IMG/VR virus record: IMGVR_UViG_2778261544_000008
DNA: 11,300 nucleotides
Source: a virus
Taxonomy: Duplodnaviria; Heunggongvirae; Uroviricota; Caudoviricetes
Direction: 5' to 3' (one strand)
Shown here: positions 597 to 11,300 of the stretch, piece after piece
How positions within the stretch are numbered: position 1 is the stretch's first letter
Layout: the number at the start of each line of letters is the position of its first letter
Position numbers and translations under genes: made by a program
The notes under the pieces: model-generated
The model's database searches: none
Told to the model about the DNA's origin: nothing
The model's input: only the letters and a program-made list of their open reading frames with translations

Positions 597-614
597 GAGG
601 GCTGAGAAGCCCTC
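597..614 (-). terminator. Stem-loop between convergent genes, probable terminator for the capsid gene
   Basis: 7-bp perfect stem (597-603 / 608-614) with a 4-nt loop. On the minus strand it is followed by CTTTTA. It sits between the plus-strand toxin stop (593) and the minus-strand capsid stop (637). Confidence 0.35.
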
Positions 615-636: not shown

Positions 637-1908
637 CTATTCTTTCCAGTCAATCCCATCCAGTAAGCACCCTGCCTCATATTGCCCCACCACCCAGTCA
701 AGGTTACAGGACTCATAGAACGCGAGGCGATTATACTGAGGCTCGTTTTTTACCAGGCCACGAACGGAACCACGCTGCCAGTACAGACACAGATTGGCAA
801 GAGGTGTGATCAATACAGCATTGTCCGGGAAAAATGGAACGGTCACAGCCGGGAGATTCCCCAGAACGGGATTTTTAATGATTTCCTCGTTAAGCAAAAT
901 TTCCTGATTCATCTGCGATGGATCAAGACGGTTTATCAAAGGCCATTGCTTACGGACCAGCGTATTGTGACTGCATACGGCCACAATGCCTTCCTGCCAC
1001 TGTTCATCAATCATGGATTGCCAGGCATCCAGAACGAGCGCATCTATCGTATGGTGTGTACCGCGTGTATTACTTTTCGGTGATGAAACAGAAAGGCCGC
1101 TGATAACCCTTCCCGCCGCTTCATTTCGAAACTTCTGCAACCAACCCACGCCGCAATCGTCACGCCCCGGATATGTTTCAGGGTCAGATTCGGCGGCATA
1201 ATGTGTGCCGTTAAAACCAATCTGAATTAAATCCAGCCATTTCCGGCGTTCAAAAGCGGCCCGCGCACTTCCTTCAAGGCCGTTTGCGGATGCGTGAGCA
1301 TCGGCATTGTCGTAGCTCAACGCAAAATCAAAATTAACCTGCTCGCAGCGGTAGCCCCTTGAAACCAGTGAATGCGCCTGTAGTGGCGAACGGCGCTCGT
1401 GAGGTGGCGATGTGCGTGCCAACGGCCCCGAAGCGTCTACCAGCACAACCCGACCTGATATATCCGTAACAGGCACGGGAGTTATTTCAGCAAGGAAATT
1501 TGCCTGCCATCCACTGGCAAGCGTTGCACTCTGGCGGGGAACGGGTTCAACTTCTGACGAATAGCGCGCAGTGTCACCGGAAAAGTGCAAATCCTTCGGA
1601 TGTTTTCCGGTTATCGACTCGATAGCGCAATTGAAAACCATCTGAGCCTGTTGATTTCGTTGTGATACAACAGAATCAGCAGTGCAATTATAACGCTCAA
1701 TGCCGTCGTTATTACCCCCACCGCTTGCAGTATGCAGGGTGTGAAGCTCAAGCTCACGCTCCAGTTTTTGATATTCATTGTCCAGCGCGCGACGCGTCTC
1801 ATCGCTTATGCTTGCTGTGTTTGCTTTCAGGCGATTCCGGGACATTAATCCCCTGAGTCGGCTCACTATATCAGCGCCGTGCAAATGTGGAGTATTCAGA
1901 CCGCCCAT
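637..1908 (-). CDS. Major capsid protein, P2 gpN-like; start codon uncertain
   Basis: Several blocks match my recollection of P2 gpN: CEQVNFDF, IGFNG, VGWLQKFRNEAAGRVIS, IDALVLDA, LGNLPAVTVPFFPDNAVLITPLANL, YESCNLDWVVGQYEAGCL. The homologous region begins near the ATG at 1641-1639. The frame is open up to 2085. An ATG at 1908-1906 overlaps the upstream ORF's stop as TAATG. Confidence 0.75.
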   Translation of the reverse strand: MGGLNTPHLHGADIVSRLRGLMSRNRLKANTASISDETRRALDNEYQKLERELELHTLHTASGGGNNDGIERYNCTADSVVSQRNQQAQMVFNCAIESITGKHPKDLHFSGDTARYSSEVEPVPRQSATLASGWQANFLAEITPVPVTDISGRVVLVDASGPLARTSPPHERRSPLQAHSLVSRGYRCEQVNFDFALSYDNADAHASANGLEGSARAAFERRKWLDLIQIGFNGTHYAAESDPETYPGRDDCGVGWLQKFRNEAAGRVISGLSVSSPKSNTRGTHHTIDALVLDAWQSMIDEQWQEGIVAVCSHNTLVRKQWPLINRLDPSQMNQEILLNEEIIKNPVLGNLPAVTVPFFPDNAVLITPLANLCLYWQRGSVRGLVKNEPQYNRLAFYESCNLDWVVGQYEAGCLLDGIDWKE

Positions 1909-2618
1909 TACTGCCACCCCCGGCAGAGTTCTCTGCCCTCCGCAAGGTCGCGCATTTTTTCTGGATTCTGTCGCGCCGCGCTCCATTGTACAGGTGAAGG
2001 GGCGTTCCTGATTGCGCGGCTTACCGAATCCGGGAGTTTCTCCGGGCAATAACGCAGCGGGCTGGAGGTGTCGCTTTCGGTATCGTTAATCCGGCCGCGA
2101 ATCATCCCGACACTTTCAGCAGTATCTGTCGCTTTCAGTGTTTCGCATATTTTCTTTTCTGCGTTATACAGCGGCTGGCCAAGCAGCTCACATAAACCAC
2201 GAATCAATAACAGAGCAGGGGTCAGCTCGTTAATCAGTTCGGGAAGTGCTTTTGCAAATATCTCTGCCCGCAACTTATTATCAATGCTTTCGTAAGCACA
2301 ACCAGCCTCTGCCGCGTTATAACGACACTCCAGTAGCCTGATGCGCGCCTCATCATGCAGCACCCGCAGACGCTCAAGATTTTCTCGCGCCACACCCGCC
2401 TGAATGGATAATTTCGCGGAGGCTTCCGTTTTTACGCCCAGCGCAGACAGGATTGAGTTCTGCCAGTCACGATCGAGAGATTCCAGCTCCCCTTTCGTCT
2501 GTTCGATAGTTGCTTCCAGATTGGTGATTAATGATTCCTGTTCACTGAGTTTTGCCATGGCTGCATCAAACTGTGCTTTACATACCTGATGTTCGGCGCT
2601 TGCCTGAGTTATATCCAT
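1908..2618 (-). CDS. Helical or coiled-coil protein, candidate capsid scaffold (Sid/gpO-like role)
   Basis: 236-aa ORF with a good SD (CAGGAGcaaatATG). The N-terminal two thirds are heptad-like and helical. It lies immediately upstream of, and overlaps, the capsid gene. Its last ~45 codons overlap the capsid-frame ORF and look low-complexity. Confidence 0.5.
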   Translation of the reverse strand: MDITQASAEHQVCKAQFDAAMAKLSEQESLITNLEATIEQTKGELESLDRDWQNSILSALGVKTEASAKLSIQAGVARENLERLRVLHDEARIRLLECRYNAAEAGCAYESIDNKLRAEIFAKALPELINELTPALLLIRGLCELLGQPLYNAEKKICETLKATDTAESVGMIRGRINDTESDTSSPLRYCPEKLPDSVSRAIRNAPSPVQWSAARQNPEKMRDLAEGRELCRGWQ

Positions 2619-2783
2619 TATTTGCTCCTGTAATACATTTTTTTACTTACGCCGATTTTTTCCATATTGCGTAATACATTCCAGCCGATTTTGTTCTCGT
2701 AATACGCTCACAATACTGTTGTATTACGCTTTCTTATATCGCGGGTGTTAAATCCCGGCATAAACAATCAGGGAGGCAACACG
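2619..2783. promoter_or_regulatory. Divergent promoter/operator region with clustered GTA(A/T)TAC palindromes
   Basis: 165-bp intergenic region between the minus-strand scaffold-like gene and the plus-strand RHH-like gene. It holds four copies of GTAATAC/GTATTAC (2630, 2671, 2699, 2721) and a 2-unit direct repeat gccgatttt...cgtaatac. One copy abuts the SD of the scaffold-like gene. Confidence 0.5.
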
Positions 2784-3017
2784 ATGAAAAAACAAAAGAA
2801 AATGCGATGCGTATTACGCTGTATTCGTATCCCGCACGAAATCGACCATAAAATAAATCAGATATGTCAGGACAGAGAGATGAACTACTCCCAGTGCGTC
2901 AGAATGTTTATCAGTCAGGGAATTAAGGCCGGGGAAACGCAGGAAGAAGACTGCAACGGGCGCAATGTAGCGGGGGATGTGTGGGCCTGGGCAAATGACC
3001 AGAACCACACGACGTAA
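2784..3017 (+). CDS. Small DNA-binding protein, ribbon-helix-helix-like (putative repressor)
   Basis: 77-aa ORF with a strong SD (GGGAGG, 7-nt spacing). The N-terminus has a beta-strand then two helices (MRCVLRCIRIP-HEIDHKINQICQDRE-MNYSQ-CVRMFISQGIK), typical of CopG/Arc-type RHH proteins. Divergent from the capsid operon. Confidence 0.45.
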   Translation: MKKQKKMRCVLRCIRIPHEIDHKINQICQDREMNYSQCVRMFISQGIKAGETQEEDCNGRNVAGDVWAWANDQNHTT

Positions 3018-3067: not shown

Positions 3068-3250
3068 CTATGAAGTTTTCGACTTCCTGCGCTTAGTAAT
3101 GCGTACAAACGACTCAAGCGTACAAAAACAAGCCCCACACTCAATATTATTGCACTGGTAATACGTTCTGTAGATGTTTTGTTCGTGTTCTTCCAACGAA
3201 CGACCACGGGTGCGGGCTGAAGCGCCACAGGCCGGGCAAGGGAAAGACAT
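3068..3250 (-). CDS. ogr: Ogr/Delta-family zinc-finger late-gene transcription activator
   Basis: 60-aa ORF MSFPCPACGASARTRGRS...YYQCNNIECGACFCTLESF. The C-x2-C-x22-C-x4-C spacing and flanking residues match P2 Ogr (MFHCPLC...HQCQNVNCSATFITYES). SD GAGGAG lies upstream. Confidence 0.85.
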   Translation of the reverse strand: MSFPCPACGASARTRGRSLEEHEQNIYRTYYQCNNIECGACFCTLESFVRITKRRKSKTS

Positions 3251-3613
3251 ATCACGCTCCTCTTACTGGTGTGAAATTTAACCTATTATATCTTCTGCCG
3301 CCCCCCTCTGGCTGTATCAAATAAACCCGCAGCAGTCGCCGCGTATTACGCACGGGCGCGCCGTTCCCATGCTCACTCGTCACATTCCCCGTATCAGTTC
3401 TCTCTTGCCGTAAGAACGGCTCTGGCTGGCGATAAAACTAACCCGGTCGGGGCATTCCCGCAGCCTTTAGCGAAAATGTAATTTACCCCCTGAAACGCGT
3501 GCTGTTCCCCCGTCACCTGCGCGCGAAAAACTCACCGTTTTTTGTGCACGCACGAAATCGCCCTCCGGGCGCGCCAGTACTTGGCCGGATGGGCAAAAAG
3601 TTACTCTAAAAAA

Positions 3614-3643
3614 TTGTGCAAATTTGTGCACTTTTGTGCAGAT
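3614..3643. repeat. Three direct TTGTGCA repeats at exact 10-bp phasing
   Basis: TTGTGCAAAT / TTGTGCACTT / TTGTGCAGAT starting at 3614, 3624 and 3634, in non-coding DNA upstream of the Ogr-like gene. Confidence 0.5.
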
Positions 3644-3862
3644 GAACAATAGCGTCAAAAAGAGTGCTTTTGAGAAATTTTTTATGGCAACTGCGCCGCG
3701 TGTATTACGTTTTTTACCATCCCCGCCGCGCATGTACATGCTTCATTTTTCTGCCAAACAACAGGGCAACTCCCCGTGACTGGCAGCCCCAAAAAATCAA
3801 TGATTGATATTGCATTTTTGTTAGAGGTTAGACCAGTTGTTTTGAGGCTCTGCCTCATAATC

Positions 3863-4185
3863 CGGTGGGGGGTGCGCAAAGCGGTTACAACGGTTACAAC
3901 AGTCAAAAACACCACTTAACAGCATGATTTTAATGGATATTGTTTGTAACCGCTTTGCGGTTACACTGCGGTTACAACGGTTACAGGTTTCAGAAAGTTA
4001 TTTATTATCAATCAGTTAAAAACTTAACTTGTAACCGCCTGTAACCTAACAAAACGGTTACATGTAACCGCGTTGTAACCGCTTTTGTAACTCATCGGAC
4101 CAGCTGCAATGTATTGATATATAATATAAAAATGAGTAATTTTAAATTTGTAACCGTTGTAACCGCTTTGCGCAACCCCCCCCGG
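3863..4185. repeat. Iteron array (TGTAACCG/CGGTTACA) with flanking inverted repeat; putative replication origin
   Basis: At least 13 full copies of the 8-mer in ~285 bp. The left half is mostly CGGTTACA, the right half mostly TGTAACCG, around an AT-rich centre. Outer arms 3874-3899 and 4148-4173 are exact reverse complements (26 bp). Embedded palindromes GTAACCGCtttGCGGTTAC and CGGTTACATGTAACCG. An AT-rich stretch lies at 4100-4150. Confidence 0.55.
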
Positions 4186-4380
4186 ACTTTAGCGCGACCC
4201 TTTAAAATGTTAATTAAACTAACTTATTCCGTCTCACTTTCATTAACTCTCTGTAATTGAAATGTGCCTCGCCACTGTTTGACCCTTTCTGATAATCAGG
4301 GGAGGGAGAGCAAAAAAAATTGATGGCGACACCGCTGCAATATGGCCACCATTGCATTGCTGTTACCGTTGGTTCTGGCC

Positions 4381-4438: not shown

Positions 4439-5440
4439 TTACTCTGCTGGTTCTTTTTGTTCAGTGAATGCTATGTTAGCTATCGGGTTAAACCTCATGG
4501 CATCTGCCAGATAGTCGGGAGAAAAATGCGCATAAGTCATCGTTTGCTGAATAGTGGCATGGCCCAGAATCCGTTGCAGGGTAACGATGTTTCCCCCGTT
4601 CATCATGAAATGCGTGGCGAACGTATGACGCATCACATGAGTCGCCTGCCCTTTTGGCAAATCAGGCTTCACCTCCTGGAGGATCTCGCGAAACCGGAGA
4701 TAATCGACCTCGTACAGCGGCCCAGTTCGGCAGGTTTTAATCAGCGAGAGCACGGCATCAGACACCGGAACCGAACGGGACTTCCCGTTCTTGGTGTTGA
4801 AGAACGTCACGCGATTACCGACGATATGCTCCCCGCGTAATTCCGTCGCCTCACCCCACCGCGCCCCCGTGGAGAGACACAGAATGGCGACACGACGCGC
4901 ATCACCTTCGAGTCGCTCAAGAAGCCGCTCAATCTCATCATCAGAAAGAAAGGCCATCTCTGTATTCTGAATTTTTAGCTTACGTATACTGCGCACGGGG
5001 TTCGGGTTGTGAAAGACCCCTGCTTCAATCAACACCGTGAACATGGTAGACAGAACGCATAAGTCACGATTAATACTGGACGGCATTAATCCGGCCTGTA
5101 ATTTCTCTGACCGATACTCAAGCATAAATTTTCGCGTCATCTGGTTGGCGCGCGGATCTCCCATTTCACGAATCACTTTCTCCAGCCGGATCCTGTAGGT
5201 ATCGCCGTAAGCCTGATTACACCCGTCAAGCATCCACCATGTATCAAGCAACTCTGATAATCGCCGCCGATCAGCAGGTTTAGCTAGCCATGGGTTATTA
5301 TGGAAATTCTGCAAAACATATTGTTCGAACTTCTCTGCACTTCCTTTCCTGGTAAAAATTTTACGTATCCGTTTGCCGTATGTCCCTTGCGGCCTGATAT
5401 CTAGCAACCATCTTCCATCATCCATCTTTCTGATCGACAT
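4439..5440 (-). CDS. int: Tyrosine recombinase, P2-type integrase
   Basis: Strong similarity along the whole length to my recollection of P2 Int (MSIRKMDDGRWLLDIRPQG..., ILCLSTGARWGEA, ATHVMRHTFATHF, LQRILGHATIQQTMTYAHF, giving the catalytic R, H-x-x-R and Y). Start taken at ATG 5440 (SD AAGGAG upstream), not the upstream in-frame ATG at 5476. Confidence 0.9.
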   Translation of the reverse strand: MSIRKMDDGRWLLDIRPQGTYGKRIRKIFTRKGSAEKFEQYVLQNFHNNPWLAKPADRRRLSELLDTWWMLDGCNQAYGDTYRIRLEKVIREMGDPRANQMTRKFMLEYRSEKLQAGLMPSSINRDLCVLSTMFTVLIEAGVFHNPNPVRSIRKLKIQNTEMAFLSDDEIERLLERLEGDARRVAILCLSTGARWGEATELRGEHIVGNRVTFFNTKNGKSRSVPVSDAVLSLIKTCRTGPLYEVDYLRFREILQEVKPDLPKGQATHVMRHTFATHFMMNGGNIVTLQRILGHATIQQTMTYAHFSPDYLADAMRFNPIANIAFTEQKEPAE

Positions 5441-5442
5441 AC

Positions 5443-8112
5443 TTAAGATCTCTCCTTGTAACTGAATATCCGGCATTTCAGCACTTCCGGCTCTCTGGCC
5501 TCGGCTACTCCTTTTCCGGCGTTTGCCTGTCTGGACACCTCACTACGAATGGTTTTGCGGCCTGTCAAAGGTCGGGAACGCCCGGCTCCGAGCAGCTCAA
5601 TCATTTCGCGATCTGTTCTGATCTCCACGCGGTGAATGGCGGCAGCCTGTGCCAGTTGCGGAATGCTGATAGCAATCCCTTCGCGGCATCCCTTGCCGTA
5701 GTGGTTTACGCCGTATTTTGTTATGCCGTCCAGGAAGTCGAACGCCTCCCAGAACTCCGTCACTTCCGGCAAGTCAGCCGCCGCCGCTTTAACCTGCGCT
5801 GTTGCCATTTGTTCCAGTTCCAGACATGTGGCATCAAGCCATTCATCCGGGATATCAATAACGCATTTCAGCGCCCTGACCAGCGCGATAAGTTGTGCGT
5901 GATTTTTGGCGATGCGGGGATGGCGAATATTTTCGCATCCGCAAAGGCGTTCCGTTTCAGCTGGCGACACTTCCAGGAACGTTTGCATAATCGCCCGTTC
6001 CTGACTTACCGCCCGGTGAATAAAACCCGATACCTTCTCGACGGGGTAGAGTTCCAGCCGTCTCGCCGCCAGTCGGGTATCTGGTGAATGGCGTTTTTTA
6101 TCGGTGTATATGCGTATCAGGCGCTCAATAATTGCCGGTGAGGCGTTTACCCGCGCATTCTGTGCAATCACGATAGCGCCCTTAAAATCCGGATCATAGG
6201 TGTTGTTATTGTTGGCCTTAACACCACGAACACCGATACCGCCGCCGTTATAGAGGCTTTTCAGGTTATCGAAATCAAACGCACCTCTTTTTTGCGCATT
6301 GTCTCCCCGGTCTGCTTCAATCAGAACAACAGGCAATCCGGCGACCTGTCCAAAGGTGCGCTTCCAGCCCGCTTCTGATCCTTTGGTTGGATCAACGCCT
6401 TCGTAGTTGTCACGACCGCACAGCCGCCAGCAAAAATCAATCAATGTTGATTTACCCGTTCCGGGTTCCCCAGTGACTTCAAGGAAAGGGAAGGATTCTT
6501 CTTTATCCCGGATTTGTTCACTGAACAGCGACCCCAGCCAGAAAGCCAGGGTAATAATTCCCTTTTCGCCAAAAGCCAGCCAGAGATCTTCTACCCATGA
6601 CGTTGTAAATTCATCCGTTTTTTTGTAGTTAATCTGTAATGTGGGTTTTTCGCTTAATGGTTTTGCGTTTATGCCATCAATTTCAAAATAATCTTCGTCA
6701 TTGATTTCATAAGTTTTACCCTTGTAAACAGCAATATCATTAAACAGCCATGCCCCAATGGCCTTGTTGTATCCGATAAAATCCTGACCAATAACCTCTT
6801 TTATTGCAGGAAGGTCATTTTTTATTAATGCGTCAAGCTGCGTAGTCGTTCCGGTATAAATGCCGCCTTTTGCTACGTGCAACAGACGTTTTTTAAATTC
6901 AGATGCGGATGTTAATTGCCCTGATGTAAAGGTGTTTTTCACCGTAGCACCATCCGGGAATGTAATGCGGAAGTAATACCATGCTTCATCCGTATCATTG
7001 TTTCGAATGTAATAAAGCGGCACTGGGTTACAGTTTGCGATTTCTTTTACAGCGCCGGATTCCTTGAGTGCAATTTTGCGCGCTTCATCTTCGTCAACAT
7101 TTCGCTCATTAATGACACGCTCAACAGCCTTCATATGGCGCTCAATATCCAGCTTGAACCAGAAAACACGGTTATCAAAGGGAAAATGAAATTCCTTTCG
7201 CTCACGAAAGGAAAACATTATTAGTGCCTTATCTCGTGGAGATTTCGCCAGCAATAAATCACCGTAATAACGGTATCTTTTCACATCATGGCCACGCAGC
7301 TTTCCGGCGACGTGTAAATCATTCCAGTCGCGTTTATTGTTGTTTTTCCCTGGTAACGCCGCTGCCGTTCTCCAGCCGTCTTCGGCGCTGCGTTCTGCAT
7401 GTTTTTTCGCGTAACGCTCACCTGCACGCCCGTTATCCAGCGCCCACACGATAACCGGACGGGGATTATCCCCGCACAGCTTCGCCAGCTCTTCCAGCGC
7501 CTTATCAGGGTAGTTCACGGCAGACATGACAGAAACGGCCGCAATGCCATTCTGGTTAAGACTGATGGCATCAAAGATACCCTCACAAATCCAGATTTCT
7601 TTGGCCTTGCTTAAATCTGCTCCTGGATAAGCCCACCACAGCCCCTTGTAGCTGCCGGAAAAATTCGCCTTGCGTCCGAAGCGTTCCGGGCGATCTATGA
7701 TTCGCTCCCACCACACACCGTCAGCCAGCGTAAAACGCACAGTAGCGGCCTGTTCGCCGCTTTCCTTGTCCTGGTATCGCTCCTGGGTAAATGCTCCCCT
7801 CAGTGGCTCCACAGCAATATTGCGTGCTTCCTGAAGATAAGCTGCCGCCGCTGCGTATGGTTCATCTTTCGTACTGATATAGCGATCTGACCATGATGAA
7901 AACACATCCGGGTAAAGTTCTTTAGTCAGCAGGTCTACACCGCATTTATTTTCACGCCCGCAGTGTACGATGTACGGCCTTTCAAGGCTGGTAAACAACT
8001 CTTTCTTTCCACATTGCGGACAAACACCATACCGGAGGTAGTTATTTTCTTCTTTAAAGTTGTAATCACGAATAAGACGGTTAATAATCTCTTTTCTGGT
8101 GTTATGTTTCAT
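5443..8112 (-). CDS. Primase-helicase, P4 alpha-like (zinc ribbon + TOPRIM primase + P-loop helicase)
   Basis: N-terminal zinc-binding CPQCGKK...HCGRENKC, a TOPRIM-like segment EIWICEGIFDAISL...WALDNGRAG, and Walker A VTGEPGTGKST with a downstream VVLIEAD. ATG at 8112 is preferred; an in-frame GTG at 8130 is possible. The stop is 2 nt before the int start. Confidence 0.9.
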   Translation of the reverse strand: MKHNTRKEIINRLIRDYNFKEENNYLRYGVCPQCGKKELFTSLERPYIVHCGRENKCGVDLLTKELYPDVFSSWSDRYISTKDEPYAAAAAYLQEARNIAVEPLRGAFTQERYQDKESGEQAATVRFTLADGVWWERIIDRPERFGRKANFSGSYKGLWWAYPGADLSKAKEIWICEGIFDAISLNQNGIAAVSVMSAVNYPDKALEELAKLCGDNPRPVIVWALDNGRAGERYAKKHAERSAEDGWRTAAALPGKNNNKRDWNDLHVAGKLRGHDVKRYRYYGDLLLAKSPRDKALIMFSFRERKEFHFPFDNRVFWFKLDIERHMKAVERVINERNVDEDEARKIALKESGAVKEIANCNPVPLYYIRNNDTDEAWYYFRITFPDGATVKNTFTSGQLTSASEFKKRLLHVAKGGIYTGTTTQLDALIKNDLPAIKEVIGQDFIGYNKAIGAWLFNDIAVYKGKTYEINDEDYFEIDGINAKPLSEKPTLQINYKKTDEFTTSWVEDLWLAFGEKGIITLAFWLGSLFSEQIRDKEESFPFLEVTGEPGTGKSTLIDFCWRLCGRDNYEGVDPTKGSEAGWKRTFGQVAGLPVVLIEADRGDNAQKRGAFDFDNLKSLYNGGGIGVRGVKANNNNTYDPDFKGAIVIAQNARVNASPAIIERLIRIYTDKKRHSPDTRLAARRLELYPVEKVSGFIHRAVSQERAIMQTFLEVSPAETERLCGCENIRHPRIAKNHAQLIALVRALKCVIDIPDEWLDATCLELEQMATAQVKAAAADLPEVTEFWEAFDFLDGITKYGVNHYGKGCREGIAISIPQLAQAAAIHRVEIRTDREMIELLGAGRSRPLTGRKTIRSEVSRQANAGKGVAEAREPEVLKCRIFSYKERS

Positions 8113-9283: not shown

Positions 9284-9535
9284 TTTGGCGGCTCCTCTAA
9301 CTGATTTACGGAGTCTCGCCAGCACGCTGCTAAACATGGTGGCGGGACGTAACAGGGTTAGCAGACTGGCGTTAGAGAAACCAGCGAGCGCAAAGGCTCC
9401 CCCATTACGCCCCGCCATAATACGGGGTAGGGTGGAATTACGGGCACAAAAAAACCGCATTACGGAAATATAGCGGCTACCCGCTCTAACAATCAGGCTG
9501 CTAAACCCGGCACCTGTTTTATGAGGTGCGGGCAA

Positions 9536-10247: not shown

Positions 10248-11300
10248 TTACTGAGATGATGCCTTAATCCATCTTGATATAGTACTTTTATCAAAGCGCA
10301 TATTGAGTCCTGCCTCTCTTGCTTCCGCGGTCAATATATCAGCAAGTTTTACCGGATTGTTTTCGAGTTCTTTATAATGAATAACAAGCATCGCACGAAA
10401 AAAATCCTTCATTGTTTTAGATAATCGTTCTATATTGTTTTTATTGGTGCATATATCTTTCTCCCCATCCTCAGAACTTAATATATTGTTACCCGCACGC
10501 AAATATAAAGTATCTGCCAATGGACTAACATAATCTTTTCTTAACTCGCTATTGGAGTTTGTAGCATTTTGTATTTTTAAAAAATCATTCTTTAAGATAT
10601 ATAAATCACCAATATCAAAAGAAACATCCTCAGTAACAATTACTCCTATATGTATATCAACGTCAGAAGCAATTATAATATTGCTATTAATTATTCGGTT
10701 GGCTTTAAACTTCTTATTAAAATCATAGTTGGCAAAAAAACTTCCCCCCAAAGCGAAAATGCCGCCTATTTCAACAAAATACTTATGGTATTTTTCTTGA
10801 ATACCTTTAAATACTGGTGGTACAACTGCCACACCTCTTTCATCCGTTGCTATTCGATATACACTATATATGTGATAATTTTCCCCATAATATAACCCCC
10901 TGTTATAATAATTTAACAAAGCAAATGCAGTATCAATTGCTATGTCACCAAATTTGGGCGCTACATATGAATGGCTTAGAGATTCACACATTGAATCAAA
11001 TATAATTCTCGACTTGTTTTTTATATAATTAAAACCATGGTGTTCTGCCGCCCTTTCTGAAATGGCATCAAGGTCAGATAACCGTGATTTACATGGTTCT
11101 GAATCCATAAACTTACGCAGACAATCGAAATTAACCACATCTTTTTCATCTGGGATATTTAATACTCCATATGCAGATTCAATTTTTATACAAATACGAA
11201 TGCAGCCTGTCACAGCCCAATGAATAAGATCATCAATATCGCAGTCTAATAACTTTGCCGCGCGCTCAATAGGATAGTAATCTCTTAGTGGTAACGTCAT
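10248..11300 (-). CDS. Hypothetical protein, 350 aa, strongly AT-rich cargo gene with HTH-like termini
   Basis: Uninterrupted 1053-nt ORF whose ATG is the last three bases of the window. Composition is far more AT-rich than the neighbouring alpA and primase genes. The N-terminus (IERAAKLLDCDIDDLIHWAVTG) and C-terminus (LADILTAEAREAGLNMRFDKSTISRWIK) look HTH-like. The central domain is unrecognised. Confidence 0.65.
   Translation of the reverse strand: MTLPLRDYYPIERAAKLLDCDIDDLIHWAVTGCIRICIKIESAYGVLNIPDEKDVVNFDCLRKFMDSEPCKSRLSDLDAISERAAEHHGFNYIKNKSRIIFDSMCESLSHSYVAPKFGDIAIDTAFALLNYYNRGLYYGENYHIYSVYRIATDERGVAVVPPVFKGIQEKYHKYFVEIGGIFALGGSFFANYDFNKKFKANRIINSNIIIASDVDIHIGVIVTEDVSFDIGDLYILKNDFLKIQNATNSNSELRKDYVSPLADTLYLRAGNNILSSEDGEKDICTNKNNIERLSKTMKDFFRAMLVIHYKELENNPVKLADILTAEAREAGLNMRFDKSTISRWIKASSQ

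Follow-up and report, generated by a model that had tools for sequence, protein, structure and literature searches.

Results

A P4-like satellite carrying a capsid gene

The window, a stretch of 11,300 nucleotides from a virus of the Caudoviricetes, is a P4-like phage satellite, inserted between the genes hpt and gcd. It carries an integrase, a toprim (alpha-type) primase, AlpA, an Ogr/Delta activator, and the C4 and isrK RNAs, and thus the integrase, primase, regulators and CI/C4 immunity RNA of a P4-like element. Two genes on the minus strand are the subject of this study. The first is a candidate gene for a Sid-like helical protein of 236 aa (1908..2618), from a family conserved at the same position in five lineages. 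The second is a capsid gene of the P2 (gpN) family (637..1908), which encodes 423 aa and starts at the ATG of a TAATG stop-start junction (1906..1910, minus strand), where the TAA stop of the Sid-like gene and the capsid ATG share base 1908. The capsid gene is flanked by the Sid-like gene and a MazEF module. An intrinsic-terminator-like hairpin, found by a scan, lies just past the capsid stop codon (597..614, minus strand).

A gene for an Ogr/Delta-type zinc-finger activator (3068..3250, minus strand; Pfam PF04606, 3.3e-11) is the same neighbour in all related loci. A late-promoter-like element, TGT-N12-AGA (2695..2712, minus strand), precedes the Sid-like ATG by about 85 nt. The consensus of Ogr/Delta-dependent P2/P4 late promoters is TGT-N12-ACA, and this motif is perfect at the aligned position in the related loci L006 and L007. 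From the gene list and annotation, the satellite has no portal, protease or terminase genes. The 19-nt cos sequence of P2/P4 is absent from it even when three mismatches are allowed, and no Psu-like match was found in the element. It does contain a cos-like stretch about 80% identical to that of P88-like (Peduoviridae) and Gemsvirus phages, where the stretch lies beside the portal gene. From this likeness, we infer that a P88-like phage may be the helper.

The region is present in 57 of 5426 complete E. coli genomes, with both genes annotated in every match listed. In E. coli alleles of 94.5-98.5% identity, neither gene changes in length, and the sole indel is intergenic. The satellite clade as a whole is rare: among 185,579 species-representative genomes, about 9 carry it, and apart from one MAG labelled Bacillota these are from Enterobacterales. 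In the literature that we searched, mostly without subscription journals, no P4-like satellite was described as carrying a capsid gene of the gpN type.

The capsid protein belongs to the gpN family

By family profile and predicted fold, the 423-aa product is a P2-type (gpN, HK97-fold) capsid protein. Pfam PF05125 covers residues 132-419 (2.4e-72; 244 bits against a cut-off of 27), and the protein matches phrog_70 at 1.2e-76. Its AF2 model has a pLDDT of 76, and the best Foldseek matches of this model are the gpN chains of the P4 procapsid 7jw1 (E 6.6e-28), with the phiRSA1 capsid protein also among the top matches. The same CDS is annotated by PGAP in E. coli as WP_021526864.1. The protein is 35-39% identical to any phage capsid protein, including 35% to that of P88. 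The gpO/gpM gene neighbourhood of P2-like phages is not found here, as the element has no gpO, gpM, gpP or gpQ.

Strong homology to gpN profiles begins only past residue ~119. gpN is cleaved between residues 31 and 32 (PMC7552001), and the region aligned to this gpO-protease site (1537..1563, minus strand) reads S118/E119-V-E-P here as compared to F31/T32-V-E-P in gpN. Cleavage is predicted at the equivalent position. Within this region, P122 and P124 are nearly invariant in the capsid family alignment. Long gpN homologues of Yersinia phages (384-411 aa) were also considered as possible counterparts, but their extra length is C-terminal, not N-terminal.

Translation start and the open frame upstream

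Minus-strand translation of window positions 637-2085 gives 483 codons without a stop, and a stop lies directly upstream at 2086-2088, as expected from the initial annotation, which had described a capsid frame open from 2085. The same annotation counted about 136 codons from there to an internal Met (Met90; 1639..1641, minus strand). This distance is correct from TTG 2049, the start of the program-made capsid ORF, which has 142 nt in common with the 236-aa ORF upstream of it (1908-2618, minus strand); counted from 2085, the distance is 148 codons. The two figures disagree because different start points were meant. The TAATG reported at the junction is indeed present, read from 1910 to 1906.

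That the capsid frame stays open as far as 2085 is due to chance: here the G+C-rich, conserved 3' end of the Sid-like gene is read in another frame. Between 1911 and 2085 (minus strand), the true coding frame is that of the conserved C-terminal tail of the Sid-like protein. With an off-frame stop frequency of 6.7% in the genes of the window, 59 stop-free codons at one given place have P=0.017. Off-frame runs at least as long account for 6 of 383 in the window, and the third frame is likewise open over the last ~38 codons of this stretch; hence, 1911-2085 is unremarkable as an open frame. In addition, the open stretch ahead of the capsid ATG is just 0-13 codons long in five divergent homologous loci, and an allele at 94.5% identity has an additional capsid-frame stop at 2079.

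Comparison of alleles and homologues places the start of the capsid gene at ATG 1908, in a predicted two-gene message read from the Sid-like gene into the capsid gene via the TAATG overlap. The two PGAP CDS share one base at this junction, the junction is identical in three divergent E. coli alleles, and a purine-rich GGGGGTGG is located 6-13 nt upstream of it. In each homologue, a Shine-Dalgarno-like element precedes the upstream ATG. The spacing of the two genes varies among homologous junctions, from gaps of 2-19 nt (17 and 2 among them) to direct abutment or an 8-nt overlap; in the Salmonella locus, both genes are in the same frame with a TGA between them. An in-frame ATG at 1986-1984, upstream of ATG 1908, may serve as an alternative start. 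Overall, the gene calls in public records are right, and both genes are intact.

Three other readings of this region were weighed. The initial annotation let the gpN-like part begin at Met90, and translation from this codon, with the upstream 89 codons as an untranslated leader, would agree with the late onset of strong gpN profile homology. However, Met1 of gpN aligns to residue 80, and codon 90 is ATA (Ile) in the E. coli 600468 allele, which matches a cluster of 764 member sequences (P0001); Met90 is therefore not the start. The retention of the upstream residues as protein across genera, with synonymous changes in excess, and the Shine-Dalgarno-like elements at the upstream ATG also argue against this reading, which we regard as very improbable. 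An even smaller chance is left to a frameshift, a pseudogenised scaffold gene or a sequencing or assembly indel in 1908-2085 that split a former single scaffold-capsid frame. The 59 codons open upstream of the ATG would fit such an event, as would the rare database proteins P0022 and P0251, in which both parts are fused. The comparison with independent assemblies refutes this reading: the two-gene structure is the same in 57 independent complete genomes, gene lengths and the 1-nt overlap are constant at 94.5-100% identity, and the Sid-like tail encoded by 1911-2085 is conserved in proteins that are only 19-34% identical. The P0022 and P0251 fusions were set aside as assembly noise or decay; they come from Logan contigs of 1.5-2 kb with several frame breaks, P0022 changing frame several times and the P0251 contigs breaking the locus into short fragmentary genes. 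Similarly negligible is a programmed -1 ribosomal frameshift that would yield a Sid-capsid fusion. Relative to the Sid-like gene, the capsid frame is -1 and stays open along the last 59 codons of that gene, and an A6 run (GAAAAAATG) is found near 1960, but this run reads GAA AAA ATG in the zero frame, and no X XXY YYZ slippery heptamer is in phase. Moreover, the frame relation and the overlap vary among relatives, with their 0-13 open codons.

The upstream gene encodes a candidate Sid-like protein

The initial annotation called the upstream ORF scaffold-like. This ORF is not gpO-like, and profile comparisons suggest that its product is a distant relative of P4 Sid, a candidate assignment drawn from weak profile matches. 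By hhalign, the family aligns with P4 Sid over 122 collinear columns that include the D-W...G motif (P=0.0044), and when 6088 ORFs were searched with the family HMM, P4 Sid ranked first among the non-self matches (E=0.015). The proteins of the family share a C-terminal tail, AIRxxPSPxQ..AR..P.K...LAEGRE.C.G, conserved at overall identities of 19-34%. The family has no match in Pfam, PHROG or NCBIfam, the Pfam, NCBIfam and PADLOC scans returning coiled-coil noise only, and it does not match Psu. The AF2 model is all-helical with a pLDDT of 49, from a shallow alignment, and has no Foldseek match with E<0.1. Relatives of P4 Sid itself were mostly copies 96-100% identical (one, truncated, at 93%); because they are nearly identical, no Sid profile could be built.

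A conserved two-helix extension precedes the N-arm

Residue 80 of the capsid protein aligns with Met1 of P2 gpN, which leaves residues 1-79 as an N-terminal extension (1672..1908, minus strand). As judged from its conservation, the stretch from 1908 down to ~1672 is a real, conserved coding extension of the capsid gene. It is retained in relatives of 38-50% identity from Salmonella, Klebsiella, Erwinia and Enterobacter, and codons 12-61 differ from a 95%-identical allele by seven synonymous and three non-synonymous changes. AF2 predicts two helices, a disordered linker and then the N-arm helix. The helices form a predicted hairpin (residues 11-29 and 36-61; 1726..1878, minus strand) with a pLDDT of 80-86 and, in two alignments, the family motif F-x-x-R-I-K-x-L-I-x-R-N ... 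E-N-x-K-L-E-x-E-L. The linker that follows (residues 62-82; 1663..1725, minus strand) is predicted to be flexible, with a pLDDT of ~33. It is rich in Gly and Asn, carries SGGGNNDGIERYNC, varies in length across the family and is poorly conserved even between close alleles, with changes such as C75R and G64E. Residues 1-79 thus appear, from alignments and model together, as a conserved two-helix hairpin and linker joined directly to the N-arm of a P2-type capsid protein. This is the arrangement of a fused delta domain, with a conserved, predicted helical N-terminal domain ahead of the N-arm. The extension is much shorter or absent in P0016, P0018 and L184-L187; since some members are short or lack it, either some lineages can do without it or the copies concerned are in decay.

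Similarity of the extension to the C-terminal domain of gpO

Residues 195-284 of gpO constitute its scaffolding domain (PMC7552001). The initial annotation had pointed to a segment, HTASGGGNNDGIERYNC, as similar to the C-terminus of P2 gpO. The segment is present, as residues 59-75 of the protein read from ATG 1908 (nt 1734-1684), and its likeness is real, as P2 gpO ends in ...RRSKATGGGGDALMTNC, though statistically weak. SGGGNNDGIERYNC, which resembles the last residues of gpO, is located four residues ahead of the gpN-equivalent start; at the same place in a phage (L011), the O/N junction reads ...AQLADF*EVTM. A pattern written for this tip motif matches 52 gpO ORFs and otherwise this protein alone among 6088 ORFs, the pattern being post hoc and designed from both sequences.

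Several profile comparisons point to the same partner. Searched with an HMM of the gpO C-terminal domain, two Salmonella members score 13.3 and 9.9 bits in their N-terminal helix, values reached by 0 of 300 shuffles, and the 13.3-bit match falls at the start of the gpO domain. The extension of the window itself scores 3.9 bits, which 2 of 300 shuffles equal. In the reverse direction, gpO C-terminal domains make up 13 of the 14 best non-self matches of the extension HMM among the 6088 ORFs. In phages where O and N are in frame (P2-like), tblastn alignments of the capsid protein cross the O stop codon into gpO ~236-284. For these comparisons, diverse gpO sequences were taken from loci flanking capsid genes, the listing of P2 gpO homologues being confined to relatives of at least 78% identity. 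Coiled-coil segments are known to yield spurious similarity, a caveat that applies to matches between the extension and gpO.

Other searches gave no such link. BLASTP of the extension against P2 gpO returned E=1.4, an hhalign comparison of the extension family with the C-termini of gpO covered 16 columns only (P=0.033), and gpO of P88, the candidate helper, is not similar to the extension. The extension alone has no match in Pfam and PHROGs scans, and PF05929 matches neither it nor the upstream ORF, even at E<=10. Against 1.84 billion protein representatives, the extension profile gave 11 matches, 10 of them members or fragments of the same family and one an unrelated repeat protein, with no gpO and no bridging sequence among them. 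Overall, several concordant but weak signals hint at homology between the extension and the gpO C-terminal domain. In phages, O and N are neighbours and frequently in frame, so that one lost stop codon is enough to fuse them. The best reading of the extension is a fusion of scaffold and capsid protein, comparable to the HK97 delta domain or SaPIbov5 Ccm. The initial annotation had listed such a fusion among its options: it is the best-supported one for residues 1-79 after ATG 1908, and does not apply to 1911-2085.

Discussion

P4 is the textbook satellite that takes the capsid protein of its helper and reshapes the shell with Sid. The element described here resembles P4 in its alpha-type primase, AlpA and C4 RNA, and in the ~240-aa helical protein that heads a late operon beside an Ogr/Delta-type activator, as in the sid-delta-psu operon. 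On the other hand, the gene order differs, a capsid gene is present, the P2/P4 cos is absent, and Psu and epsilon, of which Psu was searched for specifically, were not recognised. Among other capsid-encoding satellites, cf-PICIs also encode an HK97-fold capsid protein. However, theirs is of a different capsid lineage and part of a complete head module, with portal, protease or scaffold, connectors and terminase, whereas the element here has the capsid protein and the Sid-like gene only.

The closer parallel is Ccm of SaPIbov5, a cos-type satellite of Staphylococcus aureus. In both cases, the satellite encodes a strongly diverged homologue of the helper HK97-fold capsid protein (PMC8569155) with an N-terminal helical domain of ~80-90 residues, lacks portal, protease and terminase, and apparently has a helper-type cos region. 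Our element therefore has the hallmarks of a Ccm-type system, a diverged capsid homologue on a cos-type satellite, with the identity of its helper inferred. The differences are in the helpers and in the partner gene: phi12, the helper of SaPIbov5, has its own delta domain and no separate scaffold, whereas in P2-type helpers gpN is without a delta domain and gpO is a protein of its own. Here, furthermore, the capsid homologue has a Sid-like gene as its partner, and its incorporation into particles, its cleavage and any redirection of capsid size are putative. HK97 gp5 likewise has an N-terminal helical segment (delta domain) before the N-arm of an HK97-fold protein, followed by a conserved protease-site region. 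Unlike in HK97, the extension is shorter (a ~50-residue hairpin and linker) and shows no sequence relationship to the delta domain; it precedes a capsid protein of the P2 family, which normally has a separate scaffold, and the protease would be that of the helper. With the C-terminal domain of P2 gpO, the extension shares an amphipathic helix motif (gpO 183-200), coiled-coil helices, a Gly-rich tip ending of the hydrophobic-x-x-N-C type and a position directly upstream of the gpN N-terminus. It differs in being about half as long, in having no protease domain and in being covalently joined to the capsid protein, and the similarity stays below usual significance thresholds.

From these comparisons, we propose that the extension would act as a built-in, delta-like scaffolding domain. 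Its most likely source is the scaffolding domain at the C-terminus of a helper-type gpO; the O stop codon would have been lost first, and the protease part of gpO afterwards. Expression would depend on Ogr/Delta-type late activators. By virtue of this domain, the satellite capsid subunit could form small capsids with the Sid-like protein, or re-tile them. The helper gpO protease would then cut the extension off at the conserved site near S118/E119, and portal, protease, terminase and tail would be provided by the helper. For this explanation as a whole, which includes the gene structure, the fused scaffold-like extension and the proposed function, we estimate a probability of roughly 60%. The corresponding evolutionary scenario is put forward more tentatively: a rare P4-like clade may have captured the helper capsid gene together with the gpO scaffolding tail as one fused gene, for building or re-tiling, with its Sid-like protein, small capsids that would need nothing from the helper beyond portal, protease, terminase and tail.

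Two alternatives concern the nature and the role of the extension. It could be a lineage-specific add-on unrelated to gpO, such as a regulatory, targeting or oligomerisation helix pair, with a Gly-rich likeness that is convergent or due to chance. The weakness of every sequence link to gpO would be explained in this way, and so would the changes between close alleles in the linker (C75R, G64E) and the relatives without the extension. We nevertheless find such an origin rather unlikely, as several independent weak signals lead to the same partner, are collinear and fall at the position expected next to the gpN N-terminus, where adjacent and often in-frame O and N genes require a single lost stop codon to fuse. 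The satellite protein could also be mainly an interference device, a poison or size-redirecting subunit that co-assembles with helper gpN, for example in pentamers, with an extension that competes with helper gpO. Ccm of SaPIbov5 provides the precedent: this satellite capsid homologue has a cleaved delta domain, forms no capsids alone and occupies pentamers (PMC8569155). The absence of portal, protease and terminase genes from the satellite and the low identity to any phage capsid protein (35-39%) agree with such a role. As the main account this is less probable still; it is compatible with a built-in scaffolding domain, and would refine that explanation rather than replace it.

According to a review, P4-like satellites share no helper homologues among the proteins with which they subvert helpers (PMC11389934). 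A P4-like clade that encodes a gpN-type capsid protein itself would depart from this statement, the more so with an apparent gpO scaffolding tail fused to that protein, and would parallel Ccm of the staphylococcal cos-type islands and, in part, the cf-PICIs. If the proposed explanation is true, the locus would offer a natural experiment in which a separate scaffold turns into a delta domain, as well as a compact two-gene system, Sid-like protein and fused capsid protein, for the study of size determination. Under the more tentative capture scenario, it would define a "capsid-forming" branch of the P4 family, with the first P2-type capsid protein that has its scaffold in cis.

The capsid gene starts at a stop-start junction

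On the minus strand, the capsid frame is free of stop codons from 2085 to 637 in the translated window, and a TTG at 2049 is the earliest candidate start of the mechanical capsid ORF. The upstream 236-aa ORF (2618-1908, minus) ends with a TAA at 1910-1908, which overlaps an ATG at 1908-1906 in a TAATG junction. Read from this ATG, the capsid protein has 423 residues. The NCBI pipeline calls the capsid CDS exactly there (423 aa); its entry for the 236-aa gene reads hypothetical protein and has one base in common with the capsid CDS. The long open capsid frame, the TAATG and the segment recalling the end of the P2 scaffold gpO (HTASGGGNNDGIERYNC, residues 59-75) were accurately described in the initial annotation; its figures of 136 codons and 141 nt are true counted from TTG 2049, but not from 2085.

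The open frame had raised the possibility of a frameshifted or pseudogenised scaffold gene, a sequencing indel or a programmed frameshift within 1908-2085. Nothing in this region is broken or recoded. Both gene lengths and the same junction are kept in three E. coli alleles (94.5, 96.0 and 98.5% identity), the sole length difference being a single intergenic base upstream of the 236-aa gene, and in one E. coli allele the capsid frame is interrupted by an extra stop at 2079. Nucleotides 1911-2085 code for the C-terminal tail of the 236-aa protein, where its family is best conserved; this tail (AIRxxPSPxQ..AR..P.K...LAEGRE.C.G) is common to proteins only 19-34% identical (Klebsiella, Salmonella, second E. 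coli lineage). Substitutions there favour the frame of the 236-aa gene (7 synonymous, 5 non-synonymous) over the capsid frame (4 and 8). The junction itself varies in five divergent relatives (17-nt gap, direct abutment, 8-nt overlap, 2-nt gap), with 13, 0, 4, 13 and 9 open capsid-frame codons before the ATG versus 59 in the window; further related loci have gaps of 17-19 nt. Such differences argue against programmed frameshifting, as does the A6 run near 1960, where the zero frame reads GAA AAA ATG and there is no slippery heptamer. Among 383 off-frame runs in the genes of the window, six reach at least 59 codons, and the third frame is likewise open across the last ~38 codons of 1911-2085. 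Two-gene fusions do occur in databases (proteins P0022 and P0251), both from Logan contigs of 1.5-2 kb in which the frame is broken several times. Taken together, these data mark both the long open frame and the overlap of 141 nt as incidental; the real overlap is the one-base stop-start arrangement, which is typical of translationally coupled genes.

The Met codon at 1641-1639, proposed earlier as a gpN-like start, is internal: it encodes residue 90, whereas Met1 of the P2 capsid protein gpN aligns opposite residue 80. As a start it was rejected, the codon being ATA in the E. coli 600468 allele, which matches a cluster of 764 database sequences. Relatives with 38-50% identity (Salmonella, Klebsiella, Erwinia, Enterobacter, Izhakiella) start with a common motif, M-x-F-A-x-R-I-K-x-L-I-x-R-N, that aligns with residues 12-25 and is preceded in every relative by a purine-rich Shine-Dalgarno-like element. 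Relative to the 95%-identical allele, 7 synonymous and 3 non-synonymous changes fall in codons 12-61, and 2 and 5 in linker codons 62-82. An in-frame ATG at 1986-1984 is formally conceivable as an alternative start; it lies within the conserved tail of the 236-aa gene and has no counterpart among the relatives.

The extension has the layout of a delta domain

An AlphaFold2 model of the capsid protein, built on a 39-sequence alignment, predicts two helices in the extension (residues 11-29 and 36-61, pLDDT 80-86), a disordered Gly/Asn-rich linker (residues 62-82, pLDDT about 33) and, from residue 79, an N-arm helix followed by the HK97 fold. Structurally, the capsid fold is matched best by gpN of the P4 procapsid (7jw1, E 6.6e-28), and the Pfam P2 capsid profile spans residues 132-419. 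In P2 gpN, the gpO protease cleaves at F31|T32-V-E-P (PMC7552001). The aligned capsid region is conserved (S118|E119-V-E-P, with P122 and P124 nearly invariant) and is a probable protease site. Of the readings offered initially, a scaffold-capsid fusion like the HK97 delta domain matches this modelled layout: the predicted helical N-terminal domain, flexible linker, probable protease site and capsid fold are those of a delta-domain capsid protein.

Hairpin-less satellite capsid homologues, starting just before the N-arm (MNKTTGMPQPVML...), are found in Kluyvera, Ca. Erwinia dacicola, Apirhabdus, Pectobacterium and Salmonella (loci L184-L187; proteins P0016 and P0018). With the extension truncated or absent in these members, the domain appears not to be universally required. 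In L185-L187, the capsid frame is also open about 60-110 codons upstream, across the 3' end of the Sid-like gene.

Possible descent of the extension from gpO

Genes for both gpO and gpN were drawn from about 80 contigs of P2-like viruses. A gpO C-terminal HMM matched the N-terminal helix of Salmonella family members with 13.3 and 9.9 bits, equalled by none of 300 shuffles; the scaffolding domain (195-284) begins 12 residues after the start of the matched segment (P2 183-222). For the extension of the window's capsid protein the score was 3.9 bits, equalled by 2 of 300 shuffles. Conversely, among 6088 ORFs from all loci gathered, gpO C-terminal domains, mostly of one gpO clade, were 13 of the 14 best non-self matches of the extension HMM (E about 1-4). 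In tblastn against P2-like phages with O and N in frame, the window capsid alignment passes the O stop codon into gpO ~236-284. Four residues ahead of the gpN-equivalent N-terminus lies a motif, SGGGNNDGIERYNC, similar to the extreme end of gpO (ATGGGGDALMTNC, AGGGGNAQLADY); P2 gpO ends ...KATGGGGDALMTNC. A pattern spanning both sequences, written post hoc with both already known, retrieved 52 gpO ORFs and otherwise this capsid protein only, and no shuffled ORF.

On the other hand, BLASTP gave E=1.4 for gpO similarity of the extension, hhalign of the extension with gpO gave P=0.033 over 16 columns, and gpO of phage P88 shows no similarity to it. Searched against 1.84 billion representatives, the extension profile found 11 proteins only, with no gpO and no intermediate among them. 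The likeness of the HTASGGGNNDGIERYNC segment to the gpO C-terminus is real but statistically weak, and ancestry is not established; on these sequence comparisons, we consider descent from gpO slightly better than an even bet.

In many P2-like phages (viral contigs of the L011-L026 type; L002, Serratia phage KSP20), gpO and gpN lie in one frame with a stop codon and 3-13 codons between them, so that a single stop-codon mutation would yield an O-N fusion. At the junction in phage locus L011, ...AQLADF*EVTM..., loss of the one stop codon would give such a protein.

The upstream gene is a candidate Sid

The 236-aa protein, initially described as scaffold-like, is not gpO-like, as it has no PF05929 (gpO) match. 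Its family profile is collinear with the P4 external scaffold Sid over 122 columns (hhalign P=0.0044), including the invariant D-W...G motif. P4 Sid is also the best non-self match of the family HMM among the 6088 ORFs (E=0.015); Psu gave no match to the family. Its length, helices, operon-head position beside an Ogr/Delta gene and conserved upstream TGT-N12-ACA-like element fit a Sid-like late gene and make it a candidate member of the Sid family; the structure model was too poor for fold comparison.

The heptamer GTATTAC/GTAATAC is repeated at 2664-2825 and 3702-3716, around the region of divergent promoters that separates the Sid-like gene from a small ORF on the opposite strand (2745-3017; 77 aa per PGAP), which keeps this position in all related loci. 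These heptamers may be an operator for the small protein.

The element is a P4-like satellite

A contig of Escherichia sp. MOD1-EC7003 carries the region at 100% identity, as do 57 of 5426 complete E. coli genomes at 94.5-100%. In E. coli O139:H1, it lies within an island of about 13 kb in the hpt-gcd interval, carrying a MazEF module, the capsid gene, the 236-aa gene, an Ogr/Delta zinc-finger gene, an inner integrase, a 2.7-kb toprim primase, an Icd-like gene, an AlpA-type regulator and a terminal integrase. Rfam detects adjacent C4 antisense RNA (72.9 bits) and isrK (52.2 bits) at 9335-9529 (minus), a P4-type RNA immunity region overlapping the mechanical 175-aa ORF annotated 'Icd-like'. From this gene content and these RNAs, the element is classified by sequence as a P4-like satellite.

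The P2/P4 19-nt cos is absent from the window, and P2 itself is probably not the helper. Non-coding positions 3475-3641 share about 77-81% identity with a stretch, likewise non-coding, that lies ~290 bp beyond the portal gene in P88 (Xuanwuvirus) and is also found in phage 500465-2 (Gemsvirus; bp 133-299 of the linear record). In the P88-like/Gemsvirus group, this place beside the portal gene is that of cos. The stretch is probably a cos-type packaging site, and its resemblance suggests helpers among the P88-like Peduoviridae. Over residues 120-423, the capsid protein shares 35% identity with that of P88.

Other features accompany these genes. At 3861-4186, GCGGTTACAAC-type iterons cluster in the two orientations; they include 39-nt inverted arms with 95% complementarity, separated by 248 nt. 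The cluster resembles a replication origin that would serve the neighbouring primase, a counterpart of P4 ori/crr. Of two tyrosine recombinases, the inner one (4439-5476, minus) has a 34-nt overlap with the 3' end of the primase gene and is conserved in this position in both the Klebsiella and the second E. coli lineage (L004/L005, L007/L008); the other (22839-24050 of island locus L001) lies at the gcd-proximal end. The MazE/MazF (PemK) toxin-antitoxin pair (1-593, plus), also present in a Salmonella relative, directly follows the capsid gene at the hpt-proximal end. Beside the terminal integrase, an AT-rich 350-aa ORF (10248-11300, minus) matched nothing in Pfam or PADLOC. Database protein P0004 (534 aa, 52-kb Logan contig) is a chimera of the first ~350 residues of the satellite primase and the last ~180 of the capsid protein, presumably an island deletion derivative that lost everything between the two genes.

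Proposed working and relation to known systems

The analysis shows the gene structure, a conserved extension with predicted helices, the P2-type fold and the satellite setting. Beyond this, we propose that an Ogr/Delta-dependent late promoter would drive a two-gene message ending at the terminator at 614-597, with capsid translation coupled to Sid-like translation. As an in-cis scaffold, the extension would later be cut off by the gpO protease of the helper. With the Sid-like protein as partner, the satellite subunit may form small shells or take special positions within helper shells, the helper providing portal, protease, terminase and tail.

In function, the nearest precedent is SaPIbov5 Ccm. 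This capsid homologue of a satellite shares 24% identity with the capsid protein of its helper, loses its 87-residue delta domain by cleavage and occupies pentamers of T=4 shells (PMC8569155). Ccm and the present protein are both satellite capsid homologues with an N-terminal domain. The gene's existence is not new, since it is already annotated as a P2-family capsid protein; surveys of P4-like satellites mention no capsid gene, and according to a review, P4-like satellites and their helpers have no hijacking proteins in common (PMC11389934). As far as we could find, what is new is a conserved, scaffold-like N-terminal domain, plausibly derived from gpO, and a rare clade of P4-like satellites with their own capsid gene, present in about 9 of 185,579 species-representative genomes. 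Within the P2/P4 system, we class the protein as a satellite capsid protein of the delta-domain or Ccm-like kind.
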